This document shows positions 4 through 19,876 of a stretch of 64,000 bases of DNA, in pieces (positions within the stretch are counted from its first letter, which is position 1; every line of letters starts with the position of its first letter). The notes under the pieces were generated by a model. It was given only the letters and a program-made list of their open reading frames with translations, ran no database searches and had not been told where the DNA came from. Location: contig OZ246400.1 of assembly GCA_965230935.1 (NCBI GenBank), forward strand, positions 758,359-822,358, read 5' to 3'. The stretch is from an uncultured Gammaproteobacteria bacterium. GTDB taxonomy: Bacteria; Patescibacteriota; Patescibacteriia; Magasanikbacterales; JBBTQS01. A program made the position numbers and the translations under genes.

Positions 4-3000
4 ATGTCAGAGGCAATTGATGAGTCTACCGTTACCACAAGTAACGTAACACTGATTAAACAAGGTGGGGGTTCTAACTTATGTGATTCAGCAACACTCA
101 CCGCTACCACAACCATTAATTGTGGGTTGACTGCCGAACTTGAGACAAGCTCGACATATACCTTTACGCTTACCACTGGGATTACTGATGTTGTAGGAAA
201 CGCACTCGCATCTAATCAAACCTATACCTTTACTACAGGAGAGTTTGATCAAAATTCACAACAAACAATCAAACCATCTATTGTTGCTACTTCACCAGTC
301 GCAGGTGCAACAAATATTGGTACCAACCAAATTATTATTATTGAATTTGATAGTAATGCAAGTATGACAACATCCGGTGCCAATGGTTTGTTTGGCATGG
401 GAAACGTGACGCTCAAAGCGCTAGATGGGGGTGGTGCGCCAACAGGAAGTAATTTGTTGACTTGTACTGATGTAAGTACTAGTTGTAACTTTATGTACTC
501 ACCAGGAGCAAGTGGGAGTGAGGGTGATGAAGAAACGGCAGGTGAGAACCGACTGTACTTGCGACCAGGAAAAAATATTGCCCAGGATATTACTGCTGAT
601 CTTGGTACCGCGCTCTCAGCGAACACATCATATCAGCTCCGTATTGAAAGTGCGGTGCAATCAACCAACGGAGTTGGGCTTGGAGAAGATTTCATTCTGA
701 AGTTCAGCACAGGATCTGGTGCAGATAGCACTGGGCCAAGTGTACTTTCAAGTTTTCCTGCAAACAATGCGACCAATGTTTCTCCTACGGTAGCAGTGGA
801 GGGAATTCAAGTAACTATGAACGAACCATTATATGGGTCAAGTGTGGCTACCACTAGTGTAGCATTGCACGTTGACACCAATGATAGTGGATCTTTTGAT
901 GTTGGTACTGATGCATTAGTACAAACAAATGTTGCGTATGATTCCGGATCAAATACTATCCAGATCGCAGGTGAGGCATTGCTGGCAACAAACAAAAAGC
1001 ACTTCATTGTAATGAAGCCAGATGCCGTCAAAGATGCATCCTTGAATGCAATTGATTCTGAGACAAGCACCATGACTTCTTATCTTGCATTTACGACCGT
1101 ATCAAGTTATTCAGACAGTACCAAGCCAACAATTTTGTATGCGGAGGCCGGCAACTTCCAAGTGGTACTCAAAATGAGTGAGCCAATGGATTCAAATACC
1201 ATTAGCTCATCAACCGTAACACTCGAGAGCCCGGTAGGAACAACCTATACGTTCCAAGGAAATGACCCTACGCAGATTGATAGTCAAACCTTTGCCGTCG
1301 AAGGAAATAACATTGTCTTGAGTAACTTACTATTAAGCTCAGGATCGATTGTAAAAGTTACGGTAACTTCGACTGCAGCTGATCTTTCTGGAAATGTAAT
1401 GGATCCTGCAGTTGCAAATCATGTTGCACAAGCAACTGTTGTTAATATGCAAACTGCTGGTGCAGACTTTTTGGCCGAAGGTATGGCTGGAACAGTTGAT
1501 TATGCTGCCATGTGGGAATCCCCGGTTGAGATAATGCCGGAACGTGGAATTGCAGGTCAGACGAGTCGGTACCGAGTTACGTTTGAGCCAACACAAGCAA
1601 TTCCATCAGGTGGGCAGATTATGCTTGATATGCCAAAAGCAGCTGGTATGGATTTGAGCAATGCTGCTGCGGTGGGGGTCGGTCAATCATTTGCGAATAC
1701 GGATTTAAACGGATTGTATGATGCCAATCAAACAACCCCAACGATTGCATCAGTAAGTGCAAGTGGTAACTTGATTATTGTAACGACAGGTGGTGCTGCA
1801 ATTGCCGCAAATGACCTAGTCAGTTTCGAACTTGAAGGAATTGTAAACCCTACTATTCCTCGTGATTACACTACCACTGGGTATGTGGCGAAGATTAAAA
1901 CAAAAAATGATTCCGGAGTGCTTTTGGAAAGTTTAAGTGCAATGCCGTTCTTTATCAATGCTGCCGGAAGCCGATCAGTTTCTGGAACTGTATTTAATGA
2001 TAACGGTGCTGGCGCTGGTACCGCAGGGAACAATGTCCAAGATGGGAGTGAATCAGGAATTGAAGGTGTGGAGGTGTGGCTTGATGGTCCGTCGGGATTT
2101 TATAGTGCCTATACTGATGGAAGTGGTGATTATACTTTTAGCAGCTTGCTCGATGGAAGCTATGGTGTTTCTTTGGCCATGGTTTCAAGTACCATTGGTG
2201 GATCAAGTTATGTACCAACTTGTGGTTGGGAGCATGCTAATGTAAATGGCGGTAATGCCACCAATAAAGATCTAGCAATGCGCGGTACCACACAAGAGCT
2301 AACCGTTAATATTAGCGGCGGGCCAGCAAGTGCCAAAGTTGATGTGCGTGCGTTTAATTCATCATCCAGTTGTGGTGGAGGAGATAATGTTCGCGAAGTA
2401 ACCCTTAATGGAAGTGGTGCAGGGAGTGCAACCATGCCAGTATATGAAGGTGAATGGGAAGTTATCATTGAGCCATGGATGCCAAAGTTTGGGAACGCAG
2501 AATTTATGATGCCAGACTATGACTTTAGTATTCCAAAACCACAAGCAGTAACTGTGGCAAGTGCAGGAAATCCAGATGCGATCGCGTTTGCACTCAAGAC
2601 CTCAAACCAAACGATTAATGGTCAAGTACAAGACGGCTCAGATAATGGTATTGCCAATGTGTTTATTGTGGCACGTCCGGCAAAAGCATTTGACACCAGT
2701 GGAAATGACCTTGACGTTTCAAGTTCATATTCACAAACTCAAGCCGACGGAAGTTTTAACTTGAACGTAAACCCGGGTATGTGGCTTATTGAAGCACATG
2801 GGAAAGGTATTCCAAGTGCAGCACCAATGCAAGTAGAGGTGTATGCTGATACTGGCAACTCTGGTACTGATAATAATGCTAATGCTGATGTCTATGTTGA
2901 TGGAGCTTTGGTAACCGCAATGGGAGGAATTACCATTAAACTCGCAAAAGCAGGGCAGGTTATTCAAGGAAAGATTTTGGACGAAAATGGTAATGCGATT

Positions 3001-5622
3001 GATGGATTTGTGTGGGCAGACATGGTAGACGAGAGTGGTAATGTAACCGCCCCAGGACCAGGGACACCAACCGATGATGGCACCTACGCGTTGTATGTTG
3101 AATCAGGAGGATATGAAGTTAAGGCGCATGCTCCTGGATATGGTGAATTTGCAGCAGTTGCAGTGAATGTAGTTGATGGTGAGGACTCAACTGGTGTGAA
3201 CTTTCAAGCAGATACTGCAGATTTTGGAACCGTCACTGGTCAAGTGACCAAAAATGGAACTGCAGTTTCTGGTGCCCATGTATTTATCTTTGGACAAAAT
3301 GGTGGGAACATGGGAGTCACTGACGATAGTGGAAATTTCAGCCTAAATGTTAATGCTGGAGCAGGGTATACGATTGAAGGTTTTGTGCCAGGTTCTGGTC
3401 CATTATCTCCACTCACCAGTGTGACGGTGACTGCCGGCCAGACCAATAGTGGAAATAATCTTTCGATGGGTGCAACCGGTACGATTGAAGTGACCCTTGG
3501 TGCCGATTACTTTGTGAGTGCCTTTGATAGTAGTGGGCTTGGTGATGGTACGAACAAACGCGTAAGTGGTAAGTACACACTCACTTTGCCAGCAGGCACC
3601 TATACATTGCGTGCATTCCATCCGGCACAAGGAGAAGTACTCAACAAATCAGTGACCGTTACTGCAGGAGAGACTACTGCTGAGTCTCCAACTGAAGCAA
3701 CTACATATGCAGTGACCGGACGTATTTTGGTAAGCGGATCAAATGCCTCTGGTGCAACTGTACTCTTTATTGATGAGGACAACGGTCGTGTGGTCACCGC
3801 AGTGAGTGATACCACCAGTGGTGCCAGTGATAACACATCAGCATCATTACCTGACGGAACGTACAAAGTACTGAGTACCAAAGCAGGATATGTTGATGAT
3901 GCTGATGCAGAAACCGTTACGGTTTCTGGTGGAGCAACCACCTTTACCAGTCGCACCCTTGAGCTTGCAGCCGCAGCGGTTGCTGGGAGTGTGACGTTAA
4001 ATAGTGCTAACACTACTGTTGAGACGCGTGTGGTGGCAACAAATGGTGACAAGATTGTAGTGGCAGATGTCGATACCACCGAAAACAGTGGTGATAACTA
4101 TAGCTTAAAACTCACCAACGGTACCTGGACACTCAAAGCACGTGGTGATGGATATGAATCCGCAGAAACCGTAGTAGTCGTAAGTGGTGGTAGTCCTGAC
4201 CAATCAGACGTTGACTTCACGCTTAGCGCAATCTCCGGCTATACTGCAGTCGAAGCAAAAGTAGCCAGTGTTACCCCATCAGTTGGTGGTGTGGTTAAGA
4301 ATGACGATCTTGGCGATGATTTTGCCCTGAACCTTAATGCAAATAACTTAGGAAGTGATTCAAGTGCTGGGTCAGTAAAAACAAAGAAGAATGCGGCGTT
4401 GATTGATACTGCTAGTGGAAGTGTGCTGGGCGGATTTGGATACTCCATTACTCCACTTGATGCCAATGGAAATAAGATTACCGATGTTTCTGGTACTGAG
4501 CAGCCAACCATCACTCTTCCGATTGACACCTCTGCAGTTTCATCAGCAAGCGCAGACAAAGATAAGCTGCAAATTGGTGTGTGGGATACGTCACTTAATG
4601 ATTGGACATTGCTTGCGACTACTGTAGATTCTACAAACAACACTATGACCGCAAGTGTTCCTCACTTCTCAGATTTCGCGCCAATTATTCCTCCAGGAGG
4701 CACGGTGGCTGCGACAGCAAACACCAACGGTGGTAGTGGTGGGAGTATCAAGGCGCGACCAAGTTCACCAACCGAATTCTACATCGTTGATGTAGGAGAT
4801 GGGAAGAATGCGACTTTGCATTGGGACGCTCATACACATTGGAGTATTGCTAACTATGTAGTATATCGTTCAACAGATGGACAGGATTTTGGAGAGATTG
4901 CATTGGTGCCGGTGCCAGATACTGAATATGCCATTGATGATTTGGTAGAGGGTGAAACGTATTATTATGCAGTAGCTGCCCGTCGAGAGAATGGTGTTGA
5001 GTCTCTAGTCACCGTTCCAATTAAATTGCTCGCAGAAGTACGATACGAAGAAAAGATTCTAAGTGAAGGCGACAGCGAAATTAATGTTGAAGAAATTTCA
5101 GCACCAGCACCAGAAGTAACCGAAGAAGATCTTGTTGCTGATGAGGAAACAGATCAAGATCAAGTTCCGGAAGTAACCGAAGAAGTTGATGGTGATGAAC
5201 CAGCAGATGAACCAACTCTAGAAGAGCTTGCAGAAGAAAAGCAAGAAAAAGCGAAAAAGATTGTGACGCGAGCAGCTCAAGAGTTTAAGCGCATCTTTGG
5301 GCGCGACGCAACTTCTGAGGCTGACAAATCAGATTTGGCACTGATCGAACAAGGTCAGCGACCAGAACAGCGTAATGAAGCAGCAGAAAAACTCGCACGT
5401 AAGGTTTTTGACATGGTATTGCACATTGTTCCAACGAATGAGTTCCATGACGAGATGATTGACATGATTGCCTACGGTGGTCCGGTTGATCAGCGCAACT
5501 TAAATCGTGAGCGACAAGGTATTGGTGTATTCGGTGGTGTATTCCGACGATTGCCTGATTCAACCTACGATTGGAACATCGTCCGATTTATCAGCTACTT
5601 TACGGAGATTGGAAAAGAATAA
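4..5622 (+). CDS. Giant secreted or cell-surface protein, probably truncated at its 5' end by the window edge. It has repetitive Thr/Ser/Gly/Asn-rich Ig-like/CarboxypepD_reg-like beta-sandwich repeats, an FN3-like module near residue 1600 and an acidic Glu/Asp-rich C-terminal region.
   Basis: 1872-aa ORF with low-complexity T/S/G/N composition and repeated VxGxVxDxxGNxIxxA-type motifs. The segment YIVDVGDGKNATLHWDAHTHWSIANYVVYRSTDGQDFGEIALVPVPDTEYAIDDLVEGETYYYAVAA matches the fibronectin type III pattern. No obvious N-terminal signal peptide is visible at the first Met, consistent with truncation. Confidence 0.7.
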   Translation: MSEAIDESTVTTSNVTLIKQGGGSNLCDSATLTATTTINCGLTAELETSSTYTFTLTTGITDVVGNALASNQTYTFTTGEFDQNSQQTIKPSIVATSPVAGATNIGTNQIIIIEFDSNASMTTSGANGLFGMGNVTLKALDGGGAPTGSNLLTCTDVSTSCNFMYSPGASGSEGDEETAGENRLYLRPGKNIAQDITADLGTALSANTSYQLRIESAVQSTNGVGLGEDFILKFSTGSGADSTGPSVLSSFPANNATNVSPTVAVEGIQVTMNEPLYGSSVATTSVALHVDTNDSGSFDVGTDALVQTNVAYDSGSNTIQIAGEALLATNKKHFIVMKPDAVKDASLNAIDSETSTMTSYLAFTTVSSYSDSTKPTILYAEAGNFQVVLKMSEPMDSNTISSSTVTLESPVGTTYTFQGNDPTQIDSQTFAVEGNNIVLSNLLLSSGSIVKVTVTSTAADLSGNVMDPAVANHVAQATVVNMQTAGADFLAEGMAGTVDYAAMWESPVEIMPERGIAGQTSRYRVTFEPTQAIPSGGQIMLDMPKAAGMDLSNAAAVGVGQSFANTDLNGLYDANQTTPTIASVSASGNLIIVTTGGAAIAANDLVSFELEGIVNPTIPRDYTTTGYVAKIKTKNDSGVLLESLSAMPFFINAAGSRSVSGTVFNDNGAGAGTAGNNVQDGSESGIEGVEVWLDGPSGFYSAYTDGSGDYTFSSLLDGSYGVSLAMVSSTIGGSSYVPTCGWEHANVNGGNATNKDLAMRGTTQELTVNISGGPASAKVDVRAFNSSSSCGGGDNVREVTLNGSGAGSATMPVYEGEWEVIIEPWMPKFGNAEFMMPDYDFSIPKPQAVTVASAGNPDAIAFALKTSNQTINGQVQDGSDNGIANVFIVARPAKAFDTSGNDLDVSSSYSQTQADGSFNLNVNPGMWLIEAHGKGIPSAAPMQVEVYADTGNSGTDNNANADVYVDGALVTAMGGITIKLAKAGQVIQGKILDENGNAIDGFVWADMVDESGNVTAPGPGTPTDDGTYALYVESGGYEVKAHAPGYGEFAAVAVNVVDGEDSTGVNFQADTADFGTVTGQVTKNGTAVSGAHVFIFGQNGGNMGVTDDSGNFSLNVNAGAGYTIEGFVPGSGPLSPLTSVTVTAGQTNSGNNLSMGATGTIEVTLGADYFVSAFDSSGLGDGTNKRVSGKYTLTLPAGTYTLRAFHPAQGEVLNKSVTVTAGETTAESPTEATTYAVTGRILVSGSNASGATVLFIDEDNGRVVTAVSDTTSGASDNTSASLPDGTYKVLSTKAGYVDDADAETVTVSGGATTFTSRTLELAAAAVAGSVTLNSANTTVETRVVATNGDKIVVADVDTTENSGDNYSLKLTNGTWTLKARGDGYESAETVVVVSGGSPDQSDVDFTLSAISGYTAVEAKVASVTPSVGGVVKNDDLGDDFALNLNANNLGSDSSAGSVKTKKNAALIDTASGSVLGGFGYSITPLDANGNKITDVSGTEQPTITLPIDTSAVSSASADKDKLQIGVWDTSLNDWTLLATTVDSTNNTMTASVPHFSDFAPIIPPGGTVAATANTNGGSGGSIKARPSSPTEFYIVDVGDGKNATLHWDAHTHWSIANYVVYRSTDGQDFGEIALVPVPDTEYAIDDLVEGETYYYAVAARRENGVESLVTVPIKLLAEVRYEEKILSEGDSEINVEEISAPAPEVTEEDLVADEETDQDQVPEVTEEVDGDEPADEPTLEELAEEKQEKAKKIVTRAAQEFKRIFGRDATSEADKSDLALIEQGQRPEQRNEAAEKLARKVFDMVLHIVPTNEFHDEMIDMIAYGGPVDQRNLNRERQGIGVFGGVFRRLPDSTYDWNIVRFISYFTEIGKE

Positions 5623-5718: not shown

Positions 5719-5747
5719 TTGACAGATGCGAAGACATGCGGTATGGT
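5719..5747 (+). promoter_or_regulatory. Sigma70-like promoter driving tRNA-fMet
   Basis: TTGACA (5719-5724), a 17-nt spacer, then TATGGT (5742-5747); the tRNA starts about 15 nt downstream. Confidence 0.55.
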
Positions 5748-5762
5748 GATCACGCATTCAAT

Positions 5763-5836
5763 CGCGGGATAGAGCAATTGGCAGCTCGCCAGGCCCATAA
5801 CCTGGAGGTTGGGGGTTCGAGTCCCTCTCCCGCAAC
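5763..5836 (+). tRNA. tRNA-Met, anticodon CAT, with initiator (fMet) features
   Basis: Manual cloverleaf: acceptor stem CGCGGGA/TCCCGCA with a C1:A72 mismatch, D-stem GAGC/GCTC with A11:U24, anticodon stem CCAGG/CCTGG with loop CCCATAA (anticodon CAT), T-arm GGGGG-TTCGAGT-CCCTC and discriminator A. CCA is not encoded. Confidence 0.8.
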
Positions 5837-5854
5837 ATATATACATATATCAGA

Positions 5855-5886
5855 AGACCACAGCGTCAATGCTGTGGTCTTTTGGT
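5855..5886 (+). terminator. Intrinsic terminator after tRNA-fMet
   Basis: Perfect 10-bp stem AGACCACAGC / GCTGTGGTCT with loop GTCAAT, followed by TTTT. Confidence 0.7.
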
Positions 5887-5900
5887 TGTGTGTTGATTTG

Positions 5901-6596
5901 TCAGCGAGCGAGCGGGATCACGGCGCCACGTTCGATCTCCTCACGCGTCGGCGGCCAGGTGATGGCACCGGGGCAGCTCATGTCCTCGAATCCGCTGAGG
6001 CTGTTGTACAGATCGTGGGCGAACTGGTAGTTCGCGACCGAGACGTCGGTCGCGGTCCGTTCCTCAACAGTGCACGTCTGGTCGGTGGGCGGCGGATTGT
6101 CCGAGTCTGCGCACTCTTGATCGAACACACAGCCAGACCCAAACCTGTAGGCCCACTCCTTGATCGCGCACCGTTGCATGGCCCGCGACCAGTTGCACCA
6201 CTGGGGTGAGGGGTCTTGCGGGTGATACTCCTGGATCGAGAAGTAGAAGGTCGCCCAGACCAGCTCGTAGAGGAGCTCCCGGAGCTTCGGGTTCTTGGTC
6301 TTGAGGATCTTGCCCGGCGGATGTTTTTTGCCGGTCTCCTCGTCCACCTTGTGGCCCATGGTGAAAGCCACCATGCTGGTGTAGGATCGACGCACTACGG
6401 CGCCGACCACGTGGTTGAGGATGTTGCGATCGGCCTTGCTCAGCGACGTGTACTCGATGCCGGCATGCTGCAGAATCCGCTCCTGCAGCGCGGACTTGGC
6501 CTGTCGGTACTCGGCGCTACCGCGCTTGGGGGGTTTGGCCAGCGCGCCGTTGCTGAGCAGCGCGCATACAATGAACAAAAGAATAGTGCGGGGCAC
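5901..6596 (-). CDS. GC-rich secreted Cys-rich hypothetical protein with an N-terminal signal peptide; probably starts at GTG
   Basis: The ORF is about 62% GC against a backbone of about 45% GC. An in-frame GTG at 6596 is preceded by AAGGAG with a 5-nt spacer, which gives a classic signal peptide (PRTILLFIVCALLSNGALA). The longer ATG-initiated ORF (to 6647) adds 17 residues that do not look like a signal. The mature part is Cys-rich. No family was recognised. Confidence 0.65.
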   Translation of the reverse strand: MPRTILLFIVCALLSNGALAKPPKRGSAEYRQAKSALQERILQHAGIEYTSLSKADRNILNHVVGAVVRRSYTSMVAFTMGHKVDEETGKKHPPGKILKTKNPKLRELLYELVWATFYFSIQEYHPQDPSPQWCNWSRAMQRCAIKEWAYRFGSGCVFDQECADSDNPPPTDQTCTVEERTATDVSVANYQFAHDLYNSLSGFEDMSCPGAITWPPTREEIERGAVIPLAR

Positions 6597-6714
6597 GAGA
6601 TCTCCTTGGTCGGGGTGCGAATGAGTCGTGCACCAGGTGGAATGCACTCTGGTGCTCGACTGTCCTGACGCTATACTATTGTAACGGTTTTGTCAAGGAG
6701 ACAGGCACCTTTGC

Positions 6715-7143
6715 ATGTTTAGAAACGCTAGGGTACAATCTATGTGTTCACACCCTATGACAAATGGTTTGAGAAAATTTACTGTTGGCACGCTATTGGT
6801 GATATATGCGGCTTTTAGTTTTCCGATTTTTGGTCATGCCGCTACCATGACTACGCATAGCATGCCAATGCCTATGCATGAGCAGATGAATGGATGTGAT
6901 GATATGGGACAGTGTATGGGTACAGTTGGACAGGTAGCTGAGCAGGCGTGTATTGATCATTGTATTAGCGCAATACAACAATTCTCAGAACAAACAGCAC
7001 CAACTCTTTTTGCACTGATGATCGTGTTGTGCATGGTGGCAATGGCCTTTGCTCTTGTTCGAGCGATTCAGGTATTTGTCTCGTCCACCTATTGGCGCGG
7101 AAATTCATTACATCTTTTTACTACGATTCAATTATTAGAGTAG
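6715..7143 (+). CDS. Small Met/His/Cys-rich membrane protein, a putative copper-binding protein
   Basis: Met-rich motif HSMPMPMHEQM, a Cys cluster (GCDDMGQCMG, ACIDHCI) and a C-terminal TM helix. It lies immediately upstream of the copper ATPase/chaperone genes. Confidence 0.5.
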   Translation: MFRNARVQSMCSHPMTNGLRKFTVGTLLVIYAAFSFPIFGHAATMTTHSMPMPMHEQMNGCDDMGQCMGTVGQVAEQACIDHCISAIQQFSEQTAPTLFALMIVLCMVAMAFALVRAIQVFVSSTYWRGNSLHLFTTIQLLE

Positions 7144-7147
7144 CGCG

Positions 7148-7164
7148 TACTACATTGTGTAGTA
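7148..7164 (+). promoter_or_regulatory. Perfect inverted repeat TACTACA-TTG-TGTAGTA; candidate metalloregulator operator (cop-box-like TACAnnnTGTA) upstream of the copper cluster
   Basis: A 7-bp perfect arms palindrome sits 19 nt upstream of the 7183 start codon. The core TACA...TGTA resembles CopY-type operators. Confidence 0.4.
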
Positions 7165-7182
7165 ATTCATAACGCATACTCT

Positions 7183-8586
7183 ATGGCAAAGAAAACGCAA
7201 TCGTTTCAGATTGCAGGAATGACTTGCACGAGTTGTGAAGTCATTATTGAGCGAAAGCTCAAAAAAGTTGAAGGAGTGATTGATGCGCAGGTAACCCATT
7301 CCACTGGGCGATGTATTGTCACCACGGCATCAGGAAGTTACGTCAAGCGAGATCATATTATCGACGCTTTGGCAGATACCGAATACGCCTTTACCAATTC
7401 AGGACGCGACATTGATCGCCCAACCAGTTGGCGTAATCTCTTGAAAATCGGGGTCACGTTTATTGTGGTGTATATTGTTGCGACGCGTCTGGGGCTTCTT
7501 GCCTTTGATACGGCAATTGGGGACTCGATCAGTTATGCTGGTGCATTTGGCATTGGGCTAATTGCCTCAGTCTCCTCATGTATTGCAGTGGTTGGCGGGT
7601 TAGTACTCACGTTTACTGCTACCACAAAACGGTTGAATGAAGATGTCTCAAAGTGGCAGCTCTTTCGTGCCCACTTGTTCTTTAACAGTGGAAGGTTGCT
7701 TGGGTATTTTTTCCTAGGTGGTCTTGTAGCAATACTTGGTGCAGCAATAACGCCGTCATTACGAACCATGGGTTTGATCTCACTGGTTGCGGCGTTGGTA
7801 ATGGTGCTGCTTGCACTTGATCTTCTGGGATTAGGGGGCTCGAAAAAATGGATTCCGAGGATGCCAAAGAAATGGAGTCATTGGATTCATGATATAGCTG
7901 AACGAGGTGAGTGGTGGATTCCATTCTTACTTGGGGCATTAACGTTTTTTCTCCCATGTGGATTTACGCAATCCATGCAGTTGTATGCACTCACCACCGG
8001 AAGCTTTACTGAAGGTGCATTAACATTATTGTTTTTTGCACTTGGAACACTCCCTGCACTTTTGGGAATTGCCGCATTGGCAAGTGTGGCGTCTTCAAGA
8101 GGAAAAGCGTATCGGTGGTTTATGGTAGTTTCCGGTTGTATTGTATTACTCCTTGGGGTATATAATGTAAAAAACAGCATGAACTTACTTGGGATTAATG
8201 TACAAAGCTGGTTTTCCTCAGATGATGGTGTAGTGAATGTTCCGATTGCAGTAGCCCAGGGAGTACAGGTGGTAGACATGGCAGTATCAGGAATTGATTA
8301 TGTGCCAAGTAGAATCACGATTCAAAAAGGAGTTCCCGTACGGTGGGAAGTGGATGGTTCTGGTGCGGTAGGGTGTACTTCAGTGTTGGCGATTCCATCA
8401 CTTGGAATCTCTCGGCCACTTACGCGGACAGGAAAAACCGTTATCGAGTTTACGCCAACCAAGACCGGGAGACTGCCTTTTACTTGTGGGATGGGCATGG
8501 CCTATGGGGAGTTCACTGTGGTTGAAGCTGCGCCGAGTGCGCCAGTTGGATCAACCTGTAATTCACAAATACAAAGTTGTACATAA
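7183..8586 (+). CDS. HMA-domain (MTCxxC) polytopic membrane protein with a C-terminal cupredoxin-like domain; putative copper handling or transport protein
   Basis: N-terminal GMTCTSCEVIIE heavy-metal-associated motif, about 8 predicted TM helices including LPCGFTQSM, and a C-terminal beta-rich domain with GCTSVL...FTCGMGMAYGEF resembling a cupredoxin fold. Located in the cop cluster. Confidence 0.6.
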   Translation: MAKKTQSFQIAGMTCTSCEVIIERKLKKVEGVIDAQVTHSTGRCIVTTASGSYVKRDHIIDALADTEYAFTNSGRDIDRPTSWRNLLKIGVTFIVVYIVATRLGLLAFDTAIGDSISYAGAFGIGLIASVSSCIAVVGGLVLTFTATTKRLNEDVSKWQLFRAHLFFNSGRLLGYFFLGGLVAILGAAITPSLRTMGLISLVAALVMVLLALDLLGLGGSKKWIPRMPKKWSHWIHDIAERGEWWIPFLLGALTFFLPCGFTQSMQLYALTTGSFTEGALTLLFFALGTLPALLGIAALASVASSRGKAYRWFMVVSGCIVLLLGVYNVKNSMNLLGINVQSWFSSDDGVVNVPIAVAQGVQVVDMAVSGIDYVPSRITIQKGVPVRWEVDGSGAVGCTSVLAIPSLGISRPLTRTGKTVIEFTPTKTGRLPFTCGMGMAYGEFTVVEAAPSAPVGSTCNSQIQSCT

Positions 8587-8592
8587 CATACT

Positions 8593-8805
8593 ATGAAAAT
8601 CTATACGTATCGTATCGACGGTATGACCTGTCATGCGTGTGAATCCTTGATCACTATGGATTTGGAGGATGCAGGGTTACCAAAACCTGAATCGATTTCT
8701 GCTACAGCAGGAGAGGTCAAAATTGGTCTTGAAGAATCTCAAGTTGAATCAGTACGAGCGGCAATTGAATCAAGTGGGAAATACACGGTAACCAGCATCG
8801 TATGA
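8593..8805 (+). CDS. copZ: Copper chaperone CopZ-like HMA domain protein
   Basis: 70 aa with a GMTCHACE metal-binding motif; directly upstream of the P-type ATPase and overlapping it in ATGA fashion. Confidence 0.8.
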   Translation: MKIYTYRIDGMTCHACESLITMDLEDAGLPKPESISATAGEVKIGLEESQVESVRAAIESSGKYTVTSIV

Positions 8806-11060
8806 GTAACACAACGAAACAGTTTGATGTAACTGGCATGACCTGTGCGTCATGCGTTGCGATTATTGAGCGTGCGATTGGTAAGGTAGATGGGGTTGAT
8901 TCAGTGGCGGTTAATATTGCCACTGAAAAAGCTACCGTTGGTTTTGATTCAGCAAAAGTAAATCTTGAAACGCTCAATACCGCGCTTGGCGCACATGGCT
9001 ACACGTTTGTACAAAAGGACGTCGATACAAAACAAGAAGCAGATAGTACTGCGGTAGCAGAAGTACGCGCCTTGCGAAAAGTGGCACTCCCTGCGTTTGT
9101 GGCAGCAGCATTGTTGTTTGTCGCCATGATTATTGAGTTGAGCATGCAGGCGGTTGGATTAGAATTTTTTGTACCGATGCGACAATGGCATGTGTTGCAA
9201 TTTATCATCGCAACGCCGGTGTTGTTTTTGGCCGGAGGAAGATTTTTTGCCGGAGTGTGGCGATTTATCCGTTATGGAAGAGCTGACATGAACTCGCTTG
9301 TTGGGATTGGAACCATTGTGGCGTATGTCTATAGCACGGCAATCTTGTTCTTACCCCAACTACAAACGCAACTGGGATTGCCATCAGTAGTGTACTTTGA
9401 TGCCACAATTGTAGTAATCGGTTTTGTGCTGTTTGGAAAGTATCTTGAAGGACGATCGAAGATGAAGACCGGGCAAGCGATTCAGTCGTTGCTCAAACTT
9501 CAAGCGCGTATTGCCCATGTGCAGCGTGACGGAAAGATAGTTGATCTTCCGATTGAAGAGGTGCAAGTAGGTGATTTGTGTGTAGTGAAAGTTGGTGAGA
9601 AAATCCCAATCGATGGGATTATCACAGAAGGTTCATCCCACCTTGATGAAGCTATGATTACCGGGGAAAGTATGCCGGTGAAGCGTGAGGTTGGTGATGC
9701 CGTCATTGGTGCCACGATTAATACCGAAGCAGTGCTTACTATTGAGGCTACCGCAATCGGGGGAAATACCGTGTTAGCGCAGATTGTTAAGATGGTACAA
9801 GAGGCTCAAGGGTCTAAAGCCCCTATTCAACAATTTGCTGATACGATCTCTGCATACTTTGTCCCAGCGGTTGTGGTGATTGCCGTGGTGTCAGTTGTGC
9901 TCTGGCTTACGGTTGGGAGTAATCTCCTTGGGTTTGAAGCAGTGATTCCGATTGCGATCTCTGCACTGGTTGGGGTATTGGTTATTGCTTGTCCGTGTGC
10001 GCTTGGGTTGGCGACACCGACCGCAATTATTGTTTCAACCGGGACAGCAGCACGCAATGGACTTCTCATTAAGAACGCCGAAAGTTTAGAACGTGCGCAC
10101 GCAGTAGACACCATTGTCTTTGACAAGACCGGAACACTTACCCAAGGCTCTCCAACAGTCACTGACGTGGTCGCTGTAGATGGAAGTGATAAGCAGGAGA
10201 TTGCACGATATGCTGCTTCAGTGGAGAACATGTCCTCGCATCCCCTTGGTGCTGCTATTGTTGCATATGCACATGATGCCGATATGGATTTGGTTGATGT
10301 GCGTGATGCGACCGAGGTTGCTGGAATGGGGATTTATGCAACGATACAGAAAAAACAATGGATTGTGGGAACGACCACACTACTTACCCAATCCGGGGTA
10401 ACGATCAACGATGCACTGGTTTCTCAGACGACTGCTTTGCAAGAGCAAGGAAAGACGGTGGTGCATGTAGCACAAGGAAAGAAACACGTTGGTATTATCG
10501 CGATTACTGATGTGATTAAGGACAATGCAATTGCTGGCGTGTCGCAACTTCATAAACTCGGTGTCCGTGTCGTTATGCTTACCGGTGATAATACCAAGAC
10601 CGCAGAAGCGATTGCACAACAAGCGAGTATTGATGAAGTGCATGCTGAGTTGAGGCCAGAAGATAAAGCAAACATTATCAAAGAGCTGCAAAAGAAAGGA
10701 CGAGTAGTTGCTATGGTTGGTGATGGAATTAATGATGCACCTGCTCTTGCGCAATCAGACGTAGGAATTGCAATGAGTACCGGTACTGATGTGGCAATCG
10801 AGTCTGCTGATATTACGGTGCTGCATGGAGACATTACCAAAGTGGTGGATGCATTGCGATTATCCCGACGGACATTGCGGGTGATTAAGCAGAATTTGTT
10901 CTGGGCGTTCTTTTATAATGTCATTGGTATCCCGCTTGCCGCAGGATTGTTCTATCCAGTATTTGGGTGGCTACTCAATCCCGCATTTGCCGGAATGGCC
11001 ATGGCGTTTAGTTCGGTATCAGTGATTACCAATTCATTGCGACTGCGGCGATTCAAGTGA
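8802..11060 (+). CDS. copA: Copper-translocating P1B-type ATPase
   Basis: N-terminal HMA GMTCASCVAIIE, the CPCALGLATP transmembrane metal site, the DKTGTLT phosphorylation motif and the GDGINDAP hinge. Confidence 0.95.
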   Translation: MSNTTKQFDVTGMTCASCVAIIERAIGKVDGVDSVAVNIATEKATVGFDSAKVNLETLNTALGAHGYTFVQKDVDTKQEADSTAVAEVRALRKVALPAFVAAALLFVAMIIELSMQAVGLEFFVPMRQWHVLQFIIATPVLFLAGGRFFAGVWRFIRYGRADMNSLVGIGTIVAYVYSTAILFLPQLQTQLGLPSVVYFDATIVVIGFVLFGKYLEGRSKMKTGQAIQSLLKLQARIAHVQRDGKIVDLPIEEVQVGDLCVVKVGEKIPIDGIITEGSSHLDEAMITGESMPVKREVGDAVIGATINTEAVLTIEATAIGGNTVLAQIVKMVQEAQGSKAPIQQFADTISAYFVPAVVVIAVVSVVLWLTVGSNLLGFEAVIPIAISALVGVLVIACPCALGLATPTAIIVSTGTAARNGLLIKNAESLERAHAVDTIVFDKTGTLTQGSPTVTDVVAVDGSDKQEIARYAASVENMSSHPLGAAIVAYAHDADMDLVDVRDATEVAGMGIYATIQKKQWIVGTTTLLTQSGVTINDALVSQTTALQEQGKTVVHVAQGKKHVGIIAITDVIKDNAIAGVSQLHKLGVRVVMLTGDNTKTAEAIAQQASIDEVHAELRPEDKANIIKELQKKGRVVAMVGDGINDAPALAQSDVGIAMSTGTDVAIESADITVLHGDITKVVDALRLSRRTLRVIKQNLFWAFFYNVIGIPLAAGLFYPVFGWLLNPAFAGMAMAFSSVSVITNSLRLRRFK

Positions 11061-11074
11061 GACCAGGCATACAT

Positions 11075-11106
11075 ACACCCAGGCACATTGCCTGGGTGTA
11101 TTTTTT
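11075..11106. terminator. Bidirectional intrinsic terminator between convergent copA and the 11105-11710 gene
   Basis: Stem ACACCCAGGC / GCCTGGGTGT with loop ACATT, followed by TTTTTT (A-run on the other strand). Confidence 0.7.
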
Positions 11107-11710
11107 AGTCGTGAGGGATTATATCGACATGGGTATCTTTTTCTTCTGTCGGTATTTCAGGTGTGTCGCGATTCGTATCTTGTATAGATACATCATCACC
11201 TATTGGCTTTCCATGGTGGTCGGTTATCTCTATGGTAGAGAATATAGTTTTCGCTGCAATAATACTCCCACCATATAAGAGTAATCCGACTACAATTGAA
11301 ATACCAATTGCCGATGCGAATTTACGAAAAAATTTTGTAAGAGTGTGTGTAGGGTTGTGCCAAAGAATCAAAGCAACAATAGCAATAAGTTCTATAGTCA
11401 CCAGAATGATTCCCAGAGGATCAACATGTTCCGGAGCGTTTAAAAATGGTGCGGGAAAAATTCGAGTAAAGATCCACATACTCAGGAGTGCACCGTTAAG
11501 CACAATACCAATATGGTGAAATAGTTCTTTTTGGTTTTTATAAAACCAAAACGCCCAAACAAGTTGGGCAACGCCAATGACAATAAAAAAGAACCATTCA
11601 GGAGCAACACCTTTGTGTACTTGGGCAACAAGTGTTATGTGGAGTATCCCAGCGGTAATTGCACTCATTCCGGCAAGAGAGCCATATACTTTTTTAGGGA
11701 CAGTGTGCAT
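11105..11710 (-). CDS. Hypothetical polytopic membrane protein with an acidic, His-containing C-terminal tail
   Basis: 201-aa ORF with 5 or 6 hydrophobic helices; tail ...DHHGKPIGDD...THVDIIPHD. Confidence 0.5.
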   Translation of the reverse strand: MHTVPKKVYGSLAGMSAITAGILHITLVAQVHKGVAPEWFFFIVIGVAQLVWAFWFYKNQKELFHHIGIVLNGALLSMWIFTRIFPAPFLNAPEHVDPLGIILVTIELIAIVALILWHNPTHTLTKFFRKFASAIGISIVVGLLLYGGSIIAAKTIFSTIEITDHHGKPIGDDVSIQDTNRDTPEIPTEEKDTHVDIIPHD

Positions 11711-11765
11711 AGATAAGAAATATTGTTATTTCGGGCAGCAGACTGTGTCTGCTGCCCGAAGTGAT

Positions 11766-12278
11766 TTATTTGTGTCGTAATGATGCGAAGATCATAAAGA
11801 TACCAAAGATGATGACCAAAAGGAATATCATCGGTACCCAACTGGCATGCCAGCCAAATCCCCAAGAACCCATCATCGTCGGTCCTGGCAAGGGAATTTG
11901 CTGCGTATTTGGTGGCTGTACTTGTTCGTTTCTGCGTACGCCCATAAGGGTAAGTACGTTGTCAGCTTGCTTTTCGCAGTACATCTTTTGTGCAATCCGA
12001 ACATGGGCATTATGCAGCATCGGTGTACCTTCACCACCCATCATGTCATCCATCATATTGTGAACTTCTTCATCCGGATACATGAGGTTCATGAAGTATT
12101 CGCCAATCATTTCATATTCATCTTCAGAAAGTTCATCACAGGACACTTCTTGTTCAATAAGCGTCTTTGCTTCTTCAAGATTTGCATCGCCGTGTGCATA
12201 TACACTAGTGACCAGTAGAGGAGTTAGTAAGATTGCGGTCAGTATAATGCCAAGCGGGCGATATTGTGTGGTAGTCAT
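11766..12278 (-). CDS. Met/His-rich secreted protein with a C-terminal TM anchor; putative periplasmic copper-binding protein
   Basis: Signal peptide (LLTPLLVTSVYAHG), Met-rich stretches (MNLMYPDEEVHNMMDDMMGG, MLHNAH) and a C-terminal hydrophobic helix. Lies in the cop cluster. Confidence 0.5.
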   Translation of the reverse strand: MTTTQYRPLGIILTAILLTPLLVTSVYAHGDANLEEAKTLIEQEVSCDELSEDEYEMIGEYFMNLMYPDEEVHNMMDDMMGGEGTPMLHNAHVRIAQKMYCEKQADNVLTLMGVRRNEQVQPPNTQQIPLPGPTMMGSWGFGWHASWVPMIFLLVIIFGIFMIFASLRHK

Positions 12279-12760
12279 ATTCTGGTGAATTCGGTAATTA
12301 CTCCTTCAGCATCAAATGCATAGATAATGAAGGGTTCTTGTTGTGGTCCAGGCATCCCTGGAGATCCTTGGGGCATCCCGGGTAGTGCGATGCCAACGAT
12401 ATCGGGCTTCTCTTGCATGAGACGTTCGACTACTGTTTCAGGAACATGGCCTTCTACCACATAGTTTCCAATGATGCTGGTATGACAACTTTCCAAGGAT
12501 TTAGGTACCCCAAGTCTGTTTTTCACATCAGTGATATCGTCTTGTTGTACCACTTCTATTGTATATCCTTTTCGACGCATGTGTGAAACGTATCCACCGC
12601 AACATCCGCAGGTTGGCGACTTGTATACTGTCATTTCTGTAGTATCAATTCGCTGTGCCAGTTGCGTTTGGGTGGTCGTTCGTTGATAGAAGATCATGCC
12701 GGCTAATATCAACAGCACTCCGGTTGCGCCAAGAAGTAATTGTTTCTTGGTTTTCTTCAT
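12275..12760 (-). CDS. DUF411 (CopG-like) periplasmic metal-binding protein with a CxCCG motif
   Basis: N-terminal TM/signal followed by the YKSPTCGCCGGY motif characteristic of DUF411/CopG copper-resistance proteins. Confidence 0.7.
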   Translation of the reverse strand: MKKTKKQLLLGATGVLLILAGMIFYQRTTTQTQLAQRIDTTEMTVYKSPTCGCCGGYVSHMRRKGYTIEVVQQDDITDVKNRLGVPKSLESCHTSIIGNYVVEGHVPETVVERLMQEKPDIVGIALPGMPQGSPGMPGPQQEPFIIYAFDAEGVITEFTRI

Positions 12761-12762
12761 AG

Positions 12763-13527
12763 TTAGAGAAGAGAATCAATCAAGTCTTGGATTTGCGAAA
12801 TTGGAAGCGCGCCAGAGAGTGGTATGGTTTCTCCACTTGGTGAGATCACTACCGAATAGGGAGTACCTTGTCCGCCCGCAGCAACCGCCTCTTTGCTGTG
12901 TTGGGTTACTACTGGGGACATTTCTCCGGAATCAAGACAGTTAGTGAATGCGCTTCGATCAAGTCCTATTGCTTGTGCAATATCCGGCAACTCACTTTCG
13001 GCAAGCCCATCATTTGATGGTGTGCGTTCGAAGATTTCATCCAGATATGCCCAGAAGCCATCATTGCCACCAAGCTTTGCGGCACATTCAGTTGCTTCGG
13101 CTTCTTTACGCGCATTTCGATGGAGACTTTCAAGTGGGAAGTGTTTGTACACCCACTTTACTTTTCCGGGGTATGTAGCGAGAATTTGCTGCATAGTGGG
13201 ATGGAAACGTTTACAGAATGGGCATTCGATATCTGAGAATTCAACGATGGTAATCGGCGCATCGTTGTCTCCACGGATGTGATCTTGGTTGGTTATCGCA
13301 GCCAGTTGTATCGGTGCGCTTGGTGCGGGGTTTGGATTTGGTGCTGCTGCAGGTATAGGCACCTCAGCTACTGTAGGAGTTGGTACAATTGCAGCAGTGG
13401 TTGTGTCATCACGAAGTACAATTCCAAGGAGGATAAAAAATCCAATTGTGCAGAGGATAAGGATGCCACCGGCAAATCCCACGAGTGCACTTCGTTTATC
13501 AATTAAGGTTGGTTGTTGTTCGTTCAT
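12763..13527 (-). CDS. DsbA-like thioredoxin-fold thiol:disulfide oxidoreductase, membrane anchored
   Basis: N-terminal TM helix and the CPFC active-site motif (FSDIECPFCKRFH) typical of DsbA/BdbD. Confidence 0.8.
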   Translation of the reverse strand: MNEQQPTLIDKRSALVGFAGGILILCTIGFFILLGIVLRDDTTTAAIVPTPTVAEVPIPAAAPNPNPAPSAPIQLAAITNQDHIRGDNDAPITIVEFSDIECPFCKRFHPTMQQILATYPGKVKWVYKHFPLESLHRNARKEAEATECAAKLGGNDGFWAYLDEIFERTPSNDGLAESELPDIAQAIGLDRSAFTNCLDSGEMSPVVTQHSKEAVAAGGQGTPYSVVISPSGETIPLSGALPISQIQDLIDSLL

Positions 13528-14102: not shown

Positions 14103-14148
14103 TAGAGCGGCAAACCGGGTTCGAACCGGCGACCTCATCCTTGGCAAG
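14103..14148 (-). repeat. Distal 46-nt direct repeat of the tRNA-Gly 3' half (att site), with the probable ancestral tRNA terminator hairpin next to it
   Basis: TAGAGCGGCAAACCGGGTTCGAACCGGCGACCTCATCCTTGGCAAG matches 45 of 46 positions of tRNA-Gly from the anticodon loop to the CCA end (19751-19796). The flanking hairpin AAAATCCCAG-TTC-TGGGATTTT is at 14070-14092. Confidence 0.85.
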
Positions 14149-14307
14149 TATTCCTAAAAGACAGGAGGCACCCGGCAGGCAACGGAGCGACCGTTGTGCG
14201 GGGTTGATTAGTACAAGAAGATTAGCATTAAGAAATTTACGCTGTCAAATTAATGGAATTCAAAACACCCAGCCGGTTGGCCGAGTGTCTCGGTTGTTGT
14301 TGAATTG

Positions 14308-16557: not shown

Positions 16558-16634
16558 ATCTCAGGCGAATGTCTGAGCAAGACCGGAAGCCCCAAGTGGG
16601 CACGGAGTAGGAGGTGATTGACGTCCTAAAGATA

Positions 16635-16691: not shown

Positions 16692-16921
16692 GTATAAATG
16701 ATCATTAGGGATGTGTACATTGGCATGGTCTAACCAATTTAGCCAAATAATGGGTAGCCAGCGACCTCACCCCTGGAAAAGATGTGTGGTAAAAAAGTGA
16801 AAGATGATGTGCCAAATCACAAGATCGTTGATTGAACACGATTTTCGTTAAATTTTTTTTGCCTAAAACAAAAGAAAAAACCCCTGTTCAGGGATTCCTT
16901 CTTCCTCCTCCTCTGGAGCGG

Positions 16922-16967
16922 CAAACCGGGTTCGAACCGGCGACCTCATCCTTGGCAAGCGTCCCGA
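16922..16967 (-). repeat. Second 46-nt direct repeat of the tRNA-Gly 3' half (internal att site between elements A and B)
   Basis: TGGAGCGGCAAACCGGGTTCGAACCGGCGACCTCATCCTTGGCAAG matches tRNA-Gly positions 32-76 exactly. The adjacent roughly 70 nt (16968-17035) resemble the 14149-14215 sequence and include a CAACGG-N5-CCGTTG hairpin. Confidence 0.9.
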
Positions 16968-17314
16968 AAAGAGAGGAGGGAACTTTGCAAGCAACGGCAG
17001 AGCCGTTGTGCAGGGTTGATTAGTTTCTCCATTCTACCAAGACGAGGCTGTTTCCGTCAACTCACCGGAATGATTATATAAAATCTGCTGTCGAACTACA
17101 AGACGACCCCAAAGGGTCGTCTTGTTTGTGTTCAACTGCCACCGCAGGGCTGTGGATAAGCCATGCATCTCGCGGTACGTCTCAAAACCAACGAGTTGCT
17201 CTATGCTAATGGCAGGCCGATGGTCCTGCCACCCCCTGGCTGCGACGACTGGCTTTGCGGAACCCATCATCTACACGAAAGGAGGTGACCCACGACTGTA
17301 CAGCATTCGGCTGA

Positions 17315-17638
17315 ATGCTGTCAAATAACCCTATGAAATCACAAATGAATCCGGTCGGTCGGCCGCTTGTGTTGCGCGTGCGCGGGCTGCGTACCTGTCG
17401 TCTTGGCGATGCCATGACTCAGCGTCAGCTCGCCGACCTTGCAGGCATCACGCTTAAGCGCCTTCAGCGTCTTGAGACCATGCGCGTAATGCCACATGAG
17501 TTGCAGGAGCTTCACGCGCTTGCCCTCGCGTTGCAGGTGCCGATGGAGCAGCTGTTCCACCCGCAGTGGGGCGAAGACCACCGAACCATCATCGAGGACA
17601 GGCGGTCGGTCTTGGCTGCAGGTCGTCAGGCCGCGTGA
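17315..17638 (+). CDS. XRE-family helix-turn-helix transcriptional regulator (Cro/CI-like); the true start may be an internal Met
   Basis: HTH segment MTQRQLADLAGITLKRLQRLE; small size; located within integrated element B. Confidence 0.55.
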   Translation: MLSNNPMKSQMNPVGRPLVLRVRGLRTCRLGDAMTQRQLADLAGITLKRLQRLETMRVMPHELQELHALALALQVPMEQLFHPQWGEDHRTIIEDRRSVLAAGRQAA

Positions 17639-17815
17639 CGCTGGTGGCGCCGGTTGGGCGAGAACGCCCTTGAGGGTTCAGTTTCTTTGTATCGTCGTCT
17701 CATGCTGTACTTTCCAGTTGGCGAGACCCTGCTGGCCCTATCCGCCATAGATTCGTTAGAAGAAATCAGCGAGACCCGCGGCGAACGCCGATACAAGGCG
17801 TAGGCTTGACAAAGT

Positions 17816-17844
17816 ACATAAAATGTGTTATGCTGCTCCAAACA
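17816..17844 (+). promoter_or_regulatory. Near-consensus sigma70 promoter TTGACA-N17-TATGCT inside element B, driving an apparently noncoding stretch
   Basis: TTGACA 17816-17821, a 17-nt spacer, TATGCT 17839-17844. It forms an AT-rich patch inside GC-rich DNA. Confidence 0.55.
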
Positions 17845-18298
17845 CACTCCTCCATCCACGGCAAAAGTGGCCGAGAATCCGCCAAACTGCGCGCCAACCG
17901 AGCGGTCAGAACGCTGGAAACTGTGCTCTCGACATGAGATGAACGAGGACGTCACCGGGGTGACCCATGTGCGCAGCATCGCTGCTCACGCGGGTCGTCC
18001 TGGACGAGGGGTGAGACTCGGCTGAGTCCCTGACGGTGTCCTCGGCTTATGTCCGCTCCGAACGTTCCTGTCCTACCAGGACGCGCCCAGGGCGACCTCC
18101 ACTCAACGGCTCTGACTGTCCAACCAGTCGGAGTCGTCTTTTGTTTTGGTCAAAACCGGGGCAGAGCATGGACTGCCAGCCCATGTCATTGTGATTCTTG
18201 TGTTGTGGGGTCGCGCAAGAAGAAACCGCGCCCCCGCCCAGTCCCAAGGGTAATGACCACCCATGAGAAGGACGGGGACGCGGTCCGCGAGTCTCAGC

Positions 18299-18718: not shown

Positions 18719-18953
18719 GTAGCGCGCCTATGCCCTACGCAAAACCACAACTCAGCGAAGCACTCCTGCGCTTCTTCTACGGCGACATGCGCTTCGACAA
18801 ACTCACCATCGTGAAGATGACCGGCTGGGACCTCAAGGAGCTCGATGCTCTGCGCAGGCAAGCTGACATTCGCAAAGGGGAGCCAACGGCAGGGCCTCTT
18901 GAGTACGAACACCTGGACCAGCTCGCCACGCGAATCAGCGCCGCGCCACATTA

Positions 18954-19826: not shown

Positions 19827-19876
19827 GGACCGCTAGGCGCCCCTATCATAGCAAAGGCGCCCAATCGTATCAAGCG

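Follow-up and report, generated by a model that had tools for sequence, protein, structure and literature searches.

The 64-kb stretch of DNA analysed here, called the window throughout, is part of a Patescibacteria (candidate phyla radiation, CPR) genome of ~0.93 Mb and raises the question where the single genes of high guanine-cytosine (GC) content that stand between its ordinary genes came from. One of them, the orphan gene c5.9, lies beside a tRNA-Met gene; three more, c21.5, c40.5 and c42.3, are found elsewhere in the window. A sequence-only reading had explained all four by repeated uptake of DNA from a high-GC donor, possibly an actinobacterial host, into intergenic sites. We found that positions 5890-6610 represent a real minus-strand gene, apparently built as an autonomous transcription unit resembling a phage moron, i.e., an independent transcription unit added between conserved prophage genes (PMC3594210). 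With regard to origin we lean towards the view that these GC-rich islets are moron-like accessory units from a GC-richer mobile gene pool among Patescibacteria.

The c5.9 locus comprises the following features.

5763-5836, plus strand: tRNA-Met gene (CAT), found by ARAGORN and Rfam, convergent with c5.9
5849-5886: intrinsic terminator hairpin, back-to-back for tRNA-Met (plus strand) and c5.9 (minus strand), -20.6 kcal/mol, z = -5.2
5884-5900, minus strand: CA-rich start of the c5.9 3' module, CAAATCAACACACAACC (regular expression; nhmmer E = 4.8e-9)
5901-6596, minus strand: c5.9, orphan gene encoding a 231-aa protein
6624-6661, minus strand: stem-loop in the c5.9 leader, 13-bp arms
6670-6696, minus strand: candidate c5.9 promoter with a perfect -35 box TTGACA (6696-6691), a 15-nt spacer and TATAGC (6675-6670)

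The open reading frame (ORF) starts with GTG, and a ribosome-binding site (RBS), AAGGAG, is located 5 nt upstream (6602-6607, minus strand). In the minus-strand frame the GC content of the first, second and third codon positions is 0.58/0.46/0.83, and the overlapping plus-strand ORFs show the antisense pattern. The leader (6597-6672) folds with -26.9 kcal/mol (z = -3.4). The candidate promoter TTGACA-N15-TATAGC had been read correctly from the sequence alone; its spacing is suboptimal and the consensus scan did not list it. On the other side, the stop codon (5901) is 64 nt away from the 3' end of tRNA-Met (5836), and no second copy of this 3' end was found at ≤3 mismatches. The tRNA gene has its own promoter (TTGACA-17-TATGGT, 5719-5747) and a C1xA72 mismatch, which suggests an initiator tRNA.

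The gene product had been described beforehand as a secreted Cys-rich protein beside tRNA-fMet with a GTG start and a perfect RBS. All of these elements can be recognised: the gene itself, AAGGAG, a signal-peptide-like N-terminus (MPRTILLFIVCALLSNGALA followed by KPP, with the predicted cleavage after ALA20) and, in a mature part of 211 residues, six cysteines (134, 143, 156, 162, 175 and 208). Because of the putative signal peptide and the cysteines, c5.9 would be an exported, disulfide-stabilised accessory protein, and it may act at the cell surface or on a partner cell. In a single-sequence AlphaFold (AF2) model (predicted local distance difference test, pLDDT, 58; predicted template modelling score, pTM, 0.59) a helical N-domain is predicted with moderate confidence and residues 5-14 form a helix with low confidence; a Foldseek comparison of the model with the Protein Data Bank (PDB) gave no match below E = 0.7. 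A DsbA-like gene (12763-13527) and a DsbD_2 gene (7183-8586) are situated close to c5.9.

At this locus (5736-6668) the public gene tables list two plus-strand ORFs of 157 and 148 aa, the first of which overlaps tRNA-Met. Since these calls are on the wrong strand, the real c5.9 protein is missing from protein databases. The tables also omit c40.5 (40444-41099) and place R3, an islet outside the window, on the wrong strand (L171 18586-19230). GC-rich islets in AT-richer genomes are systematically mis-annotated.

c5.9 is one member of a class. GC-rich segments were delimited with sliding 200-nt windows and a threshold of ≥56% GC, the mean for the 64-kb window being 46.4%. For each coding sequence the GC content of third codon positions (GC3) was compared with that of 51 backbone genes (GC 0.443±0.031; GC3 0.401±0.053, highest 0.51), which gave the z values in the following list.

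5757-6720: GC-rich segment, 59% GC, with c5.9 (GC 0.62, GC3 0.83, z = 8.0)
21448-22093: GC-rich segment, 59% GC, with c21.5 (21585-21971, minus strand), a 128-aa orphan ORF between rplK and rplA (GC 0.66, GC3 0.67, z = 5.1)
40574-41130: GC-rich segment, 57% GC, with c40.5 (40597-41028, plus strand), an orphan ORF with an Arg/Lys-rich tail after gap (GC 0.59, GC3 0.73, z = 6.2)
42223-42904: GC-rich segment, 56% GC, with c42.3 (42268-42816, plus strand), a DUF218 protein with an Arg-rich tail before thyA (GC 0.58, GC3 0.66, z = 4.8)
14538-16628 and 17085-19869: two GC-rich islands at tRNA-Gly
L171 14493-15092, minus strand, outside the window: islet R1, membrane protein
L171 16746-17180, minus strand, outside the window: islet R2, possibly receiver-like
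L171 18649-19386, minus strand, outside the window: islet R3
L001 ~1150-1850, outside the window: left-hand islet beside a 2099-aa surface protein

The description of four GC-rich segments with one gene each was borne out in composition (GC3 z = 4.8-8.0) and in gene content; the 128-aa ORF between rplK and rplA, the basic-tailed ORF after gap and the DUF218 protein before thyA are all present. Beyond the window three further single-ORF islets, all orphans, follow in the 9 kb to the right, and at least one further orphan islet lies in the 2.8 kb to the left, giving a total of at least eight GC-rich single-gene islets in ~77 kb.

The four islet proteins of the window are mutually unrelated. High GC is confined essentially to the coding sequence: at 60-nt resolution the islet promoters and terminators have the GC content of the backbone or a lower one, with 30-32% GC in the promoter DNA at 40500-40540. 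Hairpins of -16.6 to -22.3 kcal/mol (z = -2.6 to -5.2), then U-containing tails, are located 3' of c5.9, c40.5, c42.3, c21.5 and a helicase gene at tRNA-Gly that is described below. Rfam applied to the whole window returned two tRNAs only, so the GC-rich blocks are not known structured RNAs. A count of windows at median GC +0.10 across 106 loci is a crude measure and gave no discrimination. As the units are compositionally foreign, single-gene, self-contained and intergenic, horizontal acquisition is the natural reading, and to this extent the proposal of repeated uptake is reasonable.

Arg-rich tails are present in four unrelated islet proteins (RQRKRGNRRRD, RERRRRQARR, RARRRPRKRRG and VQRRRETPSS; window 40980-41025 and 42780-42813, C-termini of R1 and R3). 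A common functional tag is one possible explanation, a side effect of GC-rich 3' ends another.

What several of these units have in common is situated at their 3' ends. Four GC-rich genes (at 5.9, 14.3, 41.0 and 42.8 kb) share a module of ~55 nt that consists of CAAnTCAACA(n0-3)CAACC, a hairpin and, after the hairpin, a T..TGA-containing tail. The module is on the coding strand each time; its motif follows directly after the stop codon in c5.9, c42.3 and the helicase gene, and 25 nt past the stop codon in c40.5. Apart from the c5.9 copy given above, the modules are as follows.

14245-14310, minus strand: helicase module, TAA-CAATTCAACAACAACC and a 14-bp hairpin, inside the att-flanked element A
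41051-41106, plus strand: c40.5 module, CAACTCAACACAACC at 41054-41068 and hairpin at 41071-41093
42814-42872, plus strand: c42.3 module, CAATTCAACACAACC at 42817-42831 and hairpin at 42836-42856

A regular-expression search found the motif exactly four times in 64 kb, never in 100 shuffles and never in 2.15 Mb of other loci; as three of the copies had served to build the pattern, this comparison with shuffles is in part post hoc. Independently of the pattern, a BLAST search with the c42.3 flank led to the helicase copy (TAACAATTCAACA, 13/13). Pairwise module alignments have z = 4.1-7.6, with 43 identical columns between c42.3 and c40.5 (modules of 56 and 53 nt), and all four modules fold alike into an unstructured CA-rich tract, then a stable hairpin. 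A module profile recovered these four copies alone with nhmmer (E = 1e-9 to 1e-12) and none beyond them. Outside the window, islet R2 has a CA-rich CACACACAACACAACAACCA before its hairpin/terminator. This post-stop 3' module, newly described here, ties the solitary islets to an integrative element. The earlier suggestion of a dispersed family with a shared promoter module holds insofar as a shared module exists, at the 3' end, but the promoter is generic and the proteins are unrelated.

The integrative element is one of two at tRNA-Gly, where the following features were identified.

14104-14148 (plus strand), 16915-16959 and 19752-19796: three 45-nt copies of the tRNA-Gly 3' segment (attachment or att repeats; 0 expected)
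14308-16518, minus strand: helicase with ResIII, Helicase_C and INT_rpt domains (Pfam), GC 0.56, GC3 0.64
18954-19565: integrase fragment

The att repeats delimit two tandem integrated elements of ~2.8 kb each, and ~65 nt downstream of att copies 1 and 2 are conserved. Element A contains the GC-rich helicase gene alone, with its own promoter and the 3' module; element B contains a helix-turn-helix (HTH) gene, small ORFs and the integrase fragment, a truncated piece of 203 aa with only the first ~70 positions of the catalytic domain. With one of its copies placed in element A, between 45-nt tRNA-Gly repeats, the module is part of mobile DNA.

The helicase is the sole GC-rich gene with relatives. 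These have the same ResIII/Helicase_C/INT_rpt architecture and are all Patescibacteria-type, under the names Uhrbacteria, Parcubacteria, Azambacteria, Paceibacterota and Patescibacteria. The three closest homologs with readable DNA (L174, L178 and L188) are GC-rich too. The best match is in L174, a distantly related genome of ~1.0 Mb (L11 72%, L1 47%, gatB 52% identity), where the helicase has a GC3 of 0.61 against a backbone of ~0.41-0.49, is flanked by a GC-rich 156-aa orphan (GC3 0.73) and has a 114-aa orphan (GC3 0.70) close by. Each of these three L174 genes has a TTGACA promoter and a G-poor spacer before the terminator, and the 156-aa orphan has a GGAGG RBS. In L178, an Uhrbacteria contig, the helicase gene (GC 0.60, GC3 0.74 against flanks of ~0.49) is followed after its stop codon by CACAAACAGAACCAACC before a hairpin. 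In L188 the helicase has a GC3 of 0.66 against a backbone of ~0.44-0.55, and the nearby GC-rich orphan of 339 aa has a TTGACA promoter, a GGAGG RBS and a terminator design as in the window islets. A more distant member of the family, in L176, has backbone composition and is not GC-rich. Four Patescibacteria genomes, obtained in different projects, thus have GC-rich islets around a helicase of this subfamily.

A near-identical TTGACA-N17-TATGAT promoter had been proposed for the 40.5 and 42.3 kb segments and the helicase. It is exact before c40.5 (40511-40539, plus strand, in DNA of 30-32% GC just past the gap terminator) and before the helicase (16691-16663), with 11/12 positions matching the consensus in the scan, but the candidate before c42.3 (42204-42232, plus strand) is TTGACA-17-TACGTT with TGn before the -10 box. 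The same consensus is found at 10-11/12 before tRNA-Met and before backbone genes at 23386, 33852, 50669 and 50706; TTGACA-N17-TATGAT is therefore native to this genome, the recipient's own promoter type and not an insert-specific travelling module. Since, in addition, CTTGACAAG has a single occurrence in the window, the notion of the promoter as a module shared by the inserts had to be given up. For c21.5, where no promoter had been reported, a weak TTGACG-17-TACCTT is the only candidate seen.

Relatives of the islets were sought in large collections that include assemblies of the samples holding this genome, so that an abundant co-resident donor should have appeared. c5.9 has no relative in 5.8 billion protein clusters, none in DNA-level scans of metagenome, viral, plasmid and phage collections, and no match in public protein records by exact-protein look-up. 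The lone full-HMMER match of c5.9 among 1.84 billion representatives (P0001, E = 2e-5) was rejected, as it is a 948-aa tandem-repeat protein with a score summed over 10 repeats. c42.3 matches PF02698 (DUF218, YdcF/SanA-like; residues 21-145) with 54.7 bits against a cut-off of 27.6 (E = 1.3e-14); in the large protein search it matched itself alone, and its other match was a YdcF on a Clostridium plasmid (27% identity). c5.9, c21.5 and c40.5 had no significant match in Pfam, NCBIfam, PHROGs or PADLOC, and about 2.1 Mb of fetched loci yielded no relative for any of the four islet ORFs. The synonymous-codon likelihood of c5.9 is -0.93 under high-GC models and -1.41 under the backbone of the genome, and among the codon models of Rothia, Corynebacterium, Conexibacter and high-GC Patescibacteria the likelihoods are less than 0.1 per codon apart. 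Codon usage thus separates the gene from the backbone but does not assign a donor, because high-GC Patescibacteria are not separable from Rothia or Corynebacterium.

We infer that the islets are foreign and have the same origin as the helicase element. Four points argue for a GC-richer pool among Patescibacteria: an att-flanked element carries the module too, the helicase has its affinity with this group, the design recurs in other genomes of the group, and there are high-GC Patescibacteria syntenic with this genome (L098, GC 0.61; L091, GC 0.60). The c5.9 unit itself begins with a perfect -35 box and a weak -10 box; a structured leader and a strong RBS precede its GC-rich ORF, which is followed by a CA-rich post-stop spacer and a terminator. 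Such islets would arrive horizontally from a GC-richer mobile pool circulating among Patescibacteria, and integrative elements such as the two tandem att-flanked ones at tRNA-Gly may be the carriers of this pool. The reading agrees with a survey in which ~83% of the detected transfers into Patescibacteria came from other Patescibacteria and Actinomycetota donors were rare (PMC12455944).

Several points weigh against an origin in a Patescibacteria pool. The origin of c5.9 is argued by association, from module and composition, with no homolog anywhere, and c40.5 and c21.5 have no relatives in profile libraries, plasmids, viral contigs and fetched loci, the collections covered for these two. Because gene callers mis-call islets, protein databases may lack relatives from other low-GC genomes. 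Nothing convincing was found in the way of flanking duplications, inverted repeats or target-site duplications around the solitary islets, and neither c5.9 nor any of the others is accompanied by an integrase, an att remnant or a terminal repeat. The 3' module is absent from the other Patescibacteria genomes examined and could have spread within this genome after acquisition; the c21.5 version (TGA-TCACCAACAACC) is looser and of weak similarity (z about 2). Finally, the GC content of mobile elements is usually lower than that of their hosts, not higher.

Could the islets have come instead from a high-GC host or neighbour, e.g., an actinobacterium parasitised by an episymbiont, each islet bringing its donor promoter? 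We consider this unlikely. A GC3 of 0.66-0.83 fits Rothia/Corynebacterium codon models as well as those of high-GC Patescibacteria, and high-GC bacteria commonly have GTG starts and strong RBSs. The promoters, however, are located in DNA of 30-40% GC and match the recipient consensus, unlike what is expected from a donor of 60-65% GC, and the composition switches at the ends of the coding sequences. Host-to-symbiont transfer is known for Saccharibacteria, but the present organism, placed in the Patescibacteria by its gene content and best matches, is not evidently a Saccharibacterium: the best matches of its gap and L1 proteins are in other Patescibacteria at 55-62% identity. For the gap protein these are metagenome-assembled genomes (MAGs) of Curtiss-, Magasanik-, Davies- and Buchananbacteria (55-62%, genome-contig scan), taxa too distant to provide synteny with a close relative; for L1 the best relatives have ≤61% identity (metagenome scan), which is informative for the rplK-rplA site but tells nothing about that of c5.9. 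Neither c5.9 nor c42.3 had a homolog in any collection, same-sample assemblies included, and the helicase, which is alike in promoter type, 3' module and composition, is Patescibacteria-type. An actinobacterial host is hence unsupported, and the taxonomic affinity of the helicase is of the kind that the sequence-only reading itself had named as speaking against such a donor.

It is also improbable that the GC-rich genes are long resident and keep their high GC through selection, acting on codon usage or mRNA, or through biased repair or conversion specific to these genes. The case for it comes from the helicase, the core of which is 45% identical between the window and L174, near the backbone divergence (L1 47%, gatB 52%, tmk 39%), and yet the gene is GC-rich in both and also in L178 and L188; furthermore, no donor was found for any islet. 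Against long residence, the helicase is situated at different loci across genomes, and in the window it is part of an att-flanked integrated element. A comparison of synteny, which had been proposed earlier as a check, could be carried part of the way: more distant relatives retain the order DUF3048-L25-FtsW-gyrB-...-nusG-rplK-rplA, the islet ORFs are singletons without orthologs in syntenic relatives, and the rplK-rplA gap of relatives holds a different, non-GC-rich gene. A close relative for an empty-site comparison is lacking because all backbone proteins tested are singletons at 90% identity. To our knowledge there is no mechanism that keeps single genes at +0.25-0.40 GC3.

A further possibility, of which we are equally doubtful, is an undescribed system that mobilises promoter-bearing cassettes and places orphan genes at scattered intergenic sites; the 3' module would be its recombination end, attC-like in function. 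Four unrelated ORFs have a homologous ~55-nt module at or near the stop codon, one module copy is in a mobile element, and the conserved single-stranded tract with a hairpin of variable sequence is reminiscent of structure-recognised recombination sites. The hairpin and U-tract are nevertheless fully explained as an intrinsic terminator, and no recombinase is associated with the solitary islets. Neither a matching 5' end nor a duplication or inverted repeat was found, attC-like R''/L''-L'/R' cores are not visible in the sequence, and there are four copies only, with none in the other genomes examined. In its widest form, which we hold to be speculative and improbable, the module would mark the end of an undescribed mobile single-gene cassette in Patescibacteria; a GC-rich pool on small tRNA-integrating elements would seed promoter-bearing orphans into scattered intergenic sites, and the module would be a recombination or homology anchor as well as a terminator.

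An artefact through chimeric joins, contaminating reads or a chance ORF in GC-rich non-coding DNA is scarcely credible, although such short blocks of high GC are a well-known warning sign in genomes from metagenomes, chance ORFs arise on several frames (e.g., the plus-strand 157-aa and 150-aa ones) and the public calls disagree. Separate assemblies of different runs (ERR2281800, ERR2281801 and ERR2281805 of PRJEB17505) and a 931,061-bp NCBI contig all have the same sequence with the same two junctions, so that a chimera is very unlikely, each block has exactly one ORF with RBS, putative promoter and terminator in backbone-type DNA, and the period-3 GC pattern fits the minus-strand frame only, with no match to an Rfam family.

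The individual islets differ in their surroundings. On the 3' side of c21.5, TGA-TCACCAACAACC is followed by a terminator (21560-21537), and rplA has a separate promoter (TTGACA-17-TACCAT, 21511-21483). As terminators flank c21.5 on both sides and a promoter precedes rplA, the rplK-rplA operon is split into separate units. The rplK-rplA spacer of relatives measures 15 to 7396 bp, and in many related Patescibacteria it holds a conserved two-helix membrane protein of ~134-165 aa (MSKATQTIRSIYFYAVSIIALFML...FHFRIVQKEWKERKE) of ordinary GC; the loci examined for this spacer were L138, L102, L115, L140, L109, L118, L124-L126, L162 and L122. Because of the variable spacer and this frequent occupant, the rplK-rplA site is a lineage-wide variable spot, of which c21.5 is a different, genome-specific occupant.

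The start of c40.5 is ambiguous, being either TTG at 40597 behind GAGGTG or ATG at 40681. A 13-nt direct repeat (GCGAGGTGTTTTT / GCGAGGTGTTGTT) at 40491-40503 and 40585-40597 brackets the 94-nt promoter segment of this gene; copy 1 is the 3' arm of the gap terminator and copy 2 includes the putative RBS. The repeat could be due to chance (~0.2 expected by a rough estimate) or an insertion footprint. c42.3 has the RBS AAGGAGG at 42253-42259.

Of the other parts of the window, a 2099-aa surface-type protein with Big_5, fn3, CarboxypepD_reg and SdrD_B-like repeats is encoded at 4-5622, extends upstream (L001 2141-8440) and ends just before tRNA-Met. A copper/redox cluster of backbone composition throughout (6757-13527) adjoins c5.9 on the other side; its members are a small membrane protein, an HMA-DsbD_2-cupredoxin fusion, a 70-aa ORF, an HMA P-type ATPase, a DUF411 protein and the DsbA-like thioredoxin. 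Between 47500 and 53500 an AT-rich stretch (36-40% GC) with a Fic protein, an acetyltransferase, a CZB-domain protein, a TrmB-like regulator and a full tyrosine recombinase (Phage_integrase, 52575-53444) may be a second, AT-rich kind of island.

Patescibacteria have tiny genomes with accessory genes mostly of unknown origin and function. If the islets derive from the proposed pool, part of this accessory load would consist of self-contained GC-rich orphan units tied to a lineage-specific mobile element family, and the islets would give a handle on how streamlined symbionts gain surface and secreted proteins. The case also calls for caution, as a high-GC patch in an episymbiont is not always host DNA. 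Gene callers trained on the AT-richer backbone mis-strand or skip islet genes, and the class is consequently under-represented in protein databases.

Among known systems, integron cassettes resemble the islets in that unrelated single ORFs each have a related, hairpin-containing 3' element. Unlike cassettes, the islets bear putative promoters, are dispersed over 37 kb and have neither intI/attI nor attC cores, and their hairpin with U-tract is terminator-like. No integron integrase is present, the only recombinases of the window being the fragment at 18954-19565 and the Phage_integrase gene at ~52.6-53.4 kb. The tRNA-linked islands of tyrosine integrases (PMC2704930) share the atypical GC content, and c5.9 is close to the 3' end of tRNA-Met. 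Textbook islands of this type do occur in this genome, at tRNA-Gly, where three 45-nt att repeats are accompanied by an integrase fragment, whereas the solitary islets have no integrase, tRNA-end repeat or flanking duplications and comprise ~0.6-0.75 kb with one gene.

A survey of groundwater Patescibacteria attributed up to 13% of a genome to islands and individually transferred genes (PMC12455944). It needs a recovered donor and reports neither GC-rich orphan islets with promoter and terminator nor a 3' module, but it describes transfer from Patescibacteria to Patescibacteria, to which the affinity of the helicase in the present genome corresponds.

The closest likeness in design is to the phage morons introduced above (PMC3594210). 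The islets differ from them in being located in the chromosomal backbone with no phage genes nearby, in being GC-richer than the host and in that several share a 3' module; no significant PHROG match and no viral-contig relatives were found, and the neighbours are tRNA-Met, the copper cluster, rplK/rplA, gap and thyA. Like a moron, each islet is a single accessory ORF of odd composition with a factor-independent terminator and, putatively, its own sigma-70 promoter, and like morons the islets are situated between conserved genes without disrupting them, as is the case for c21.5 between rplK and rplA, where rplA keeps its own promoter.

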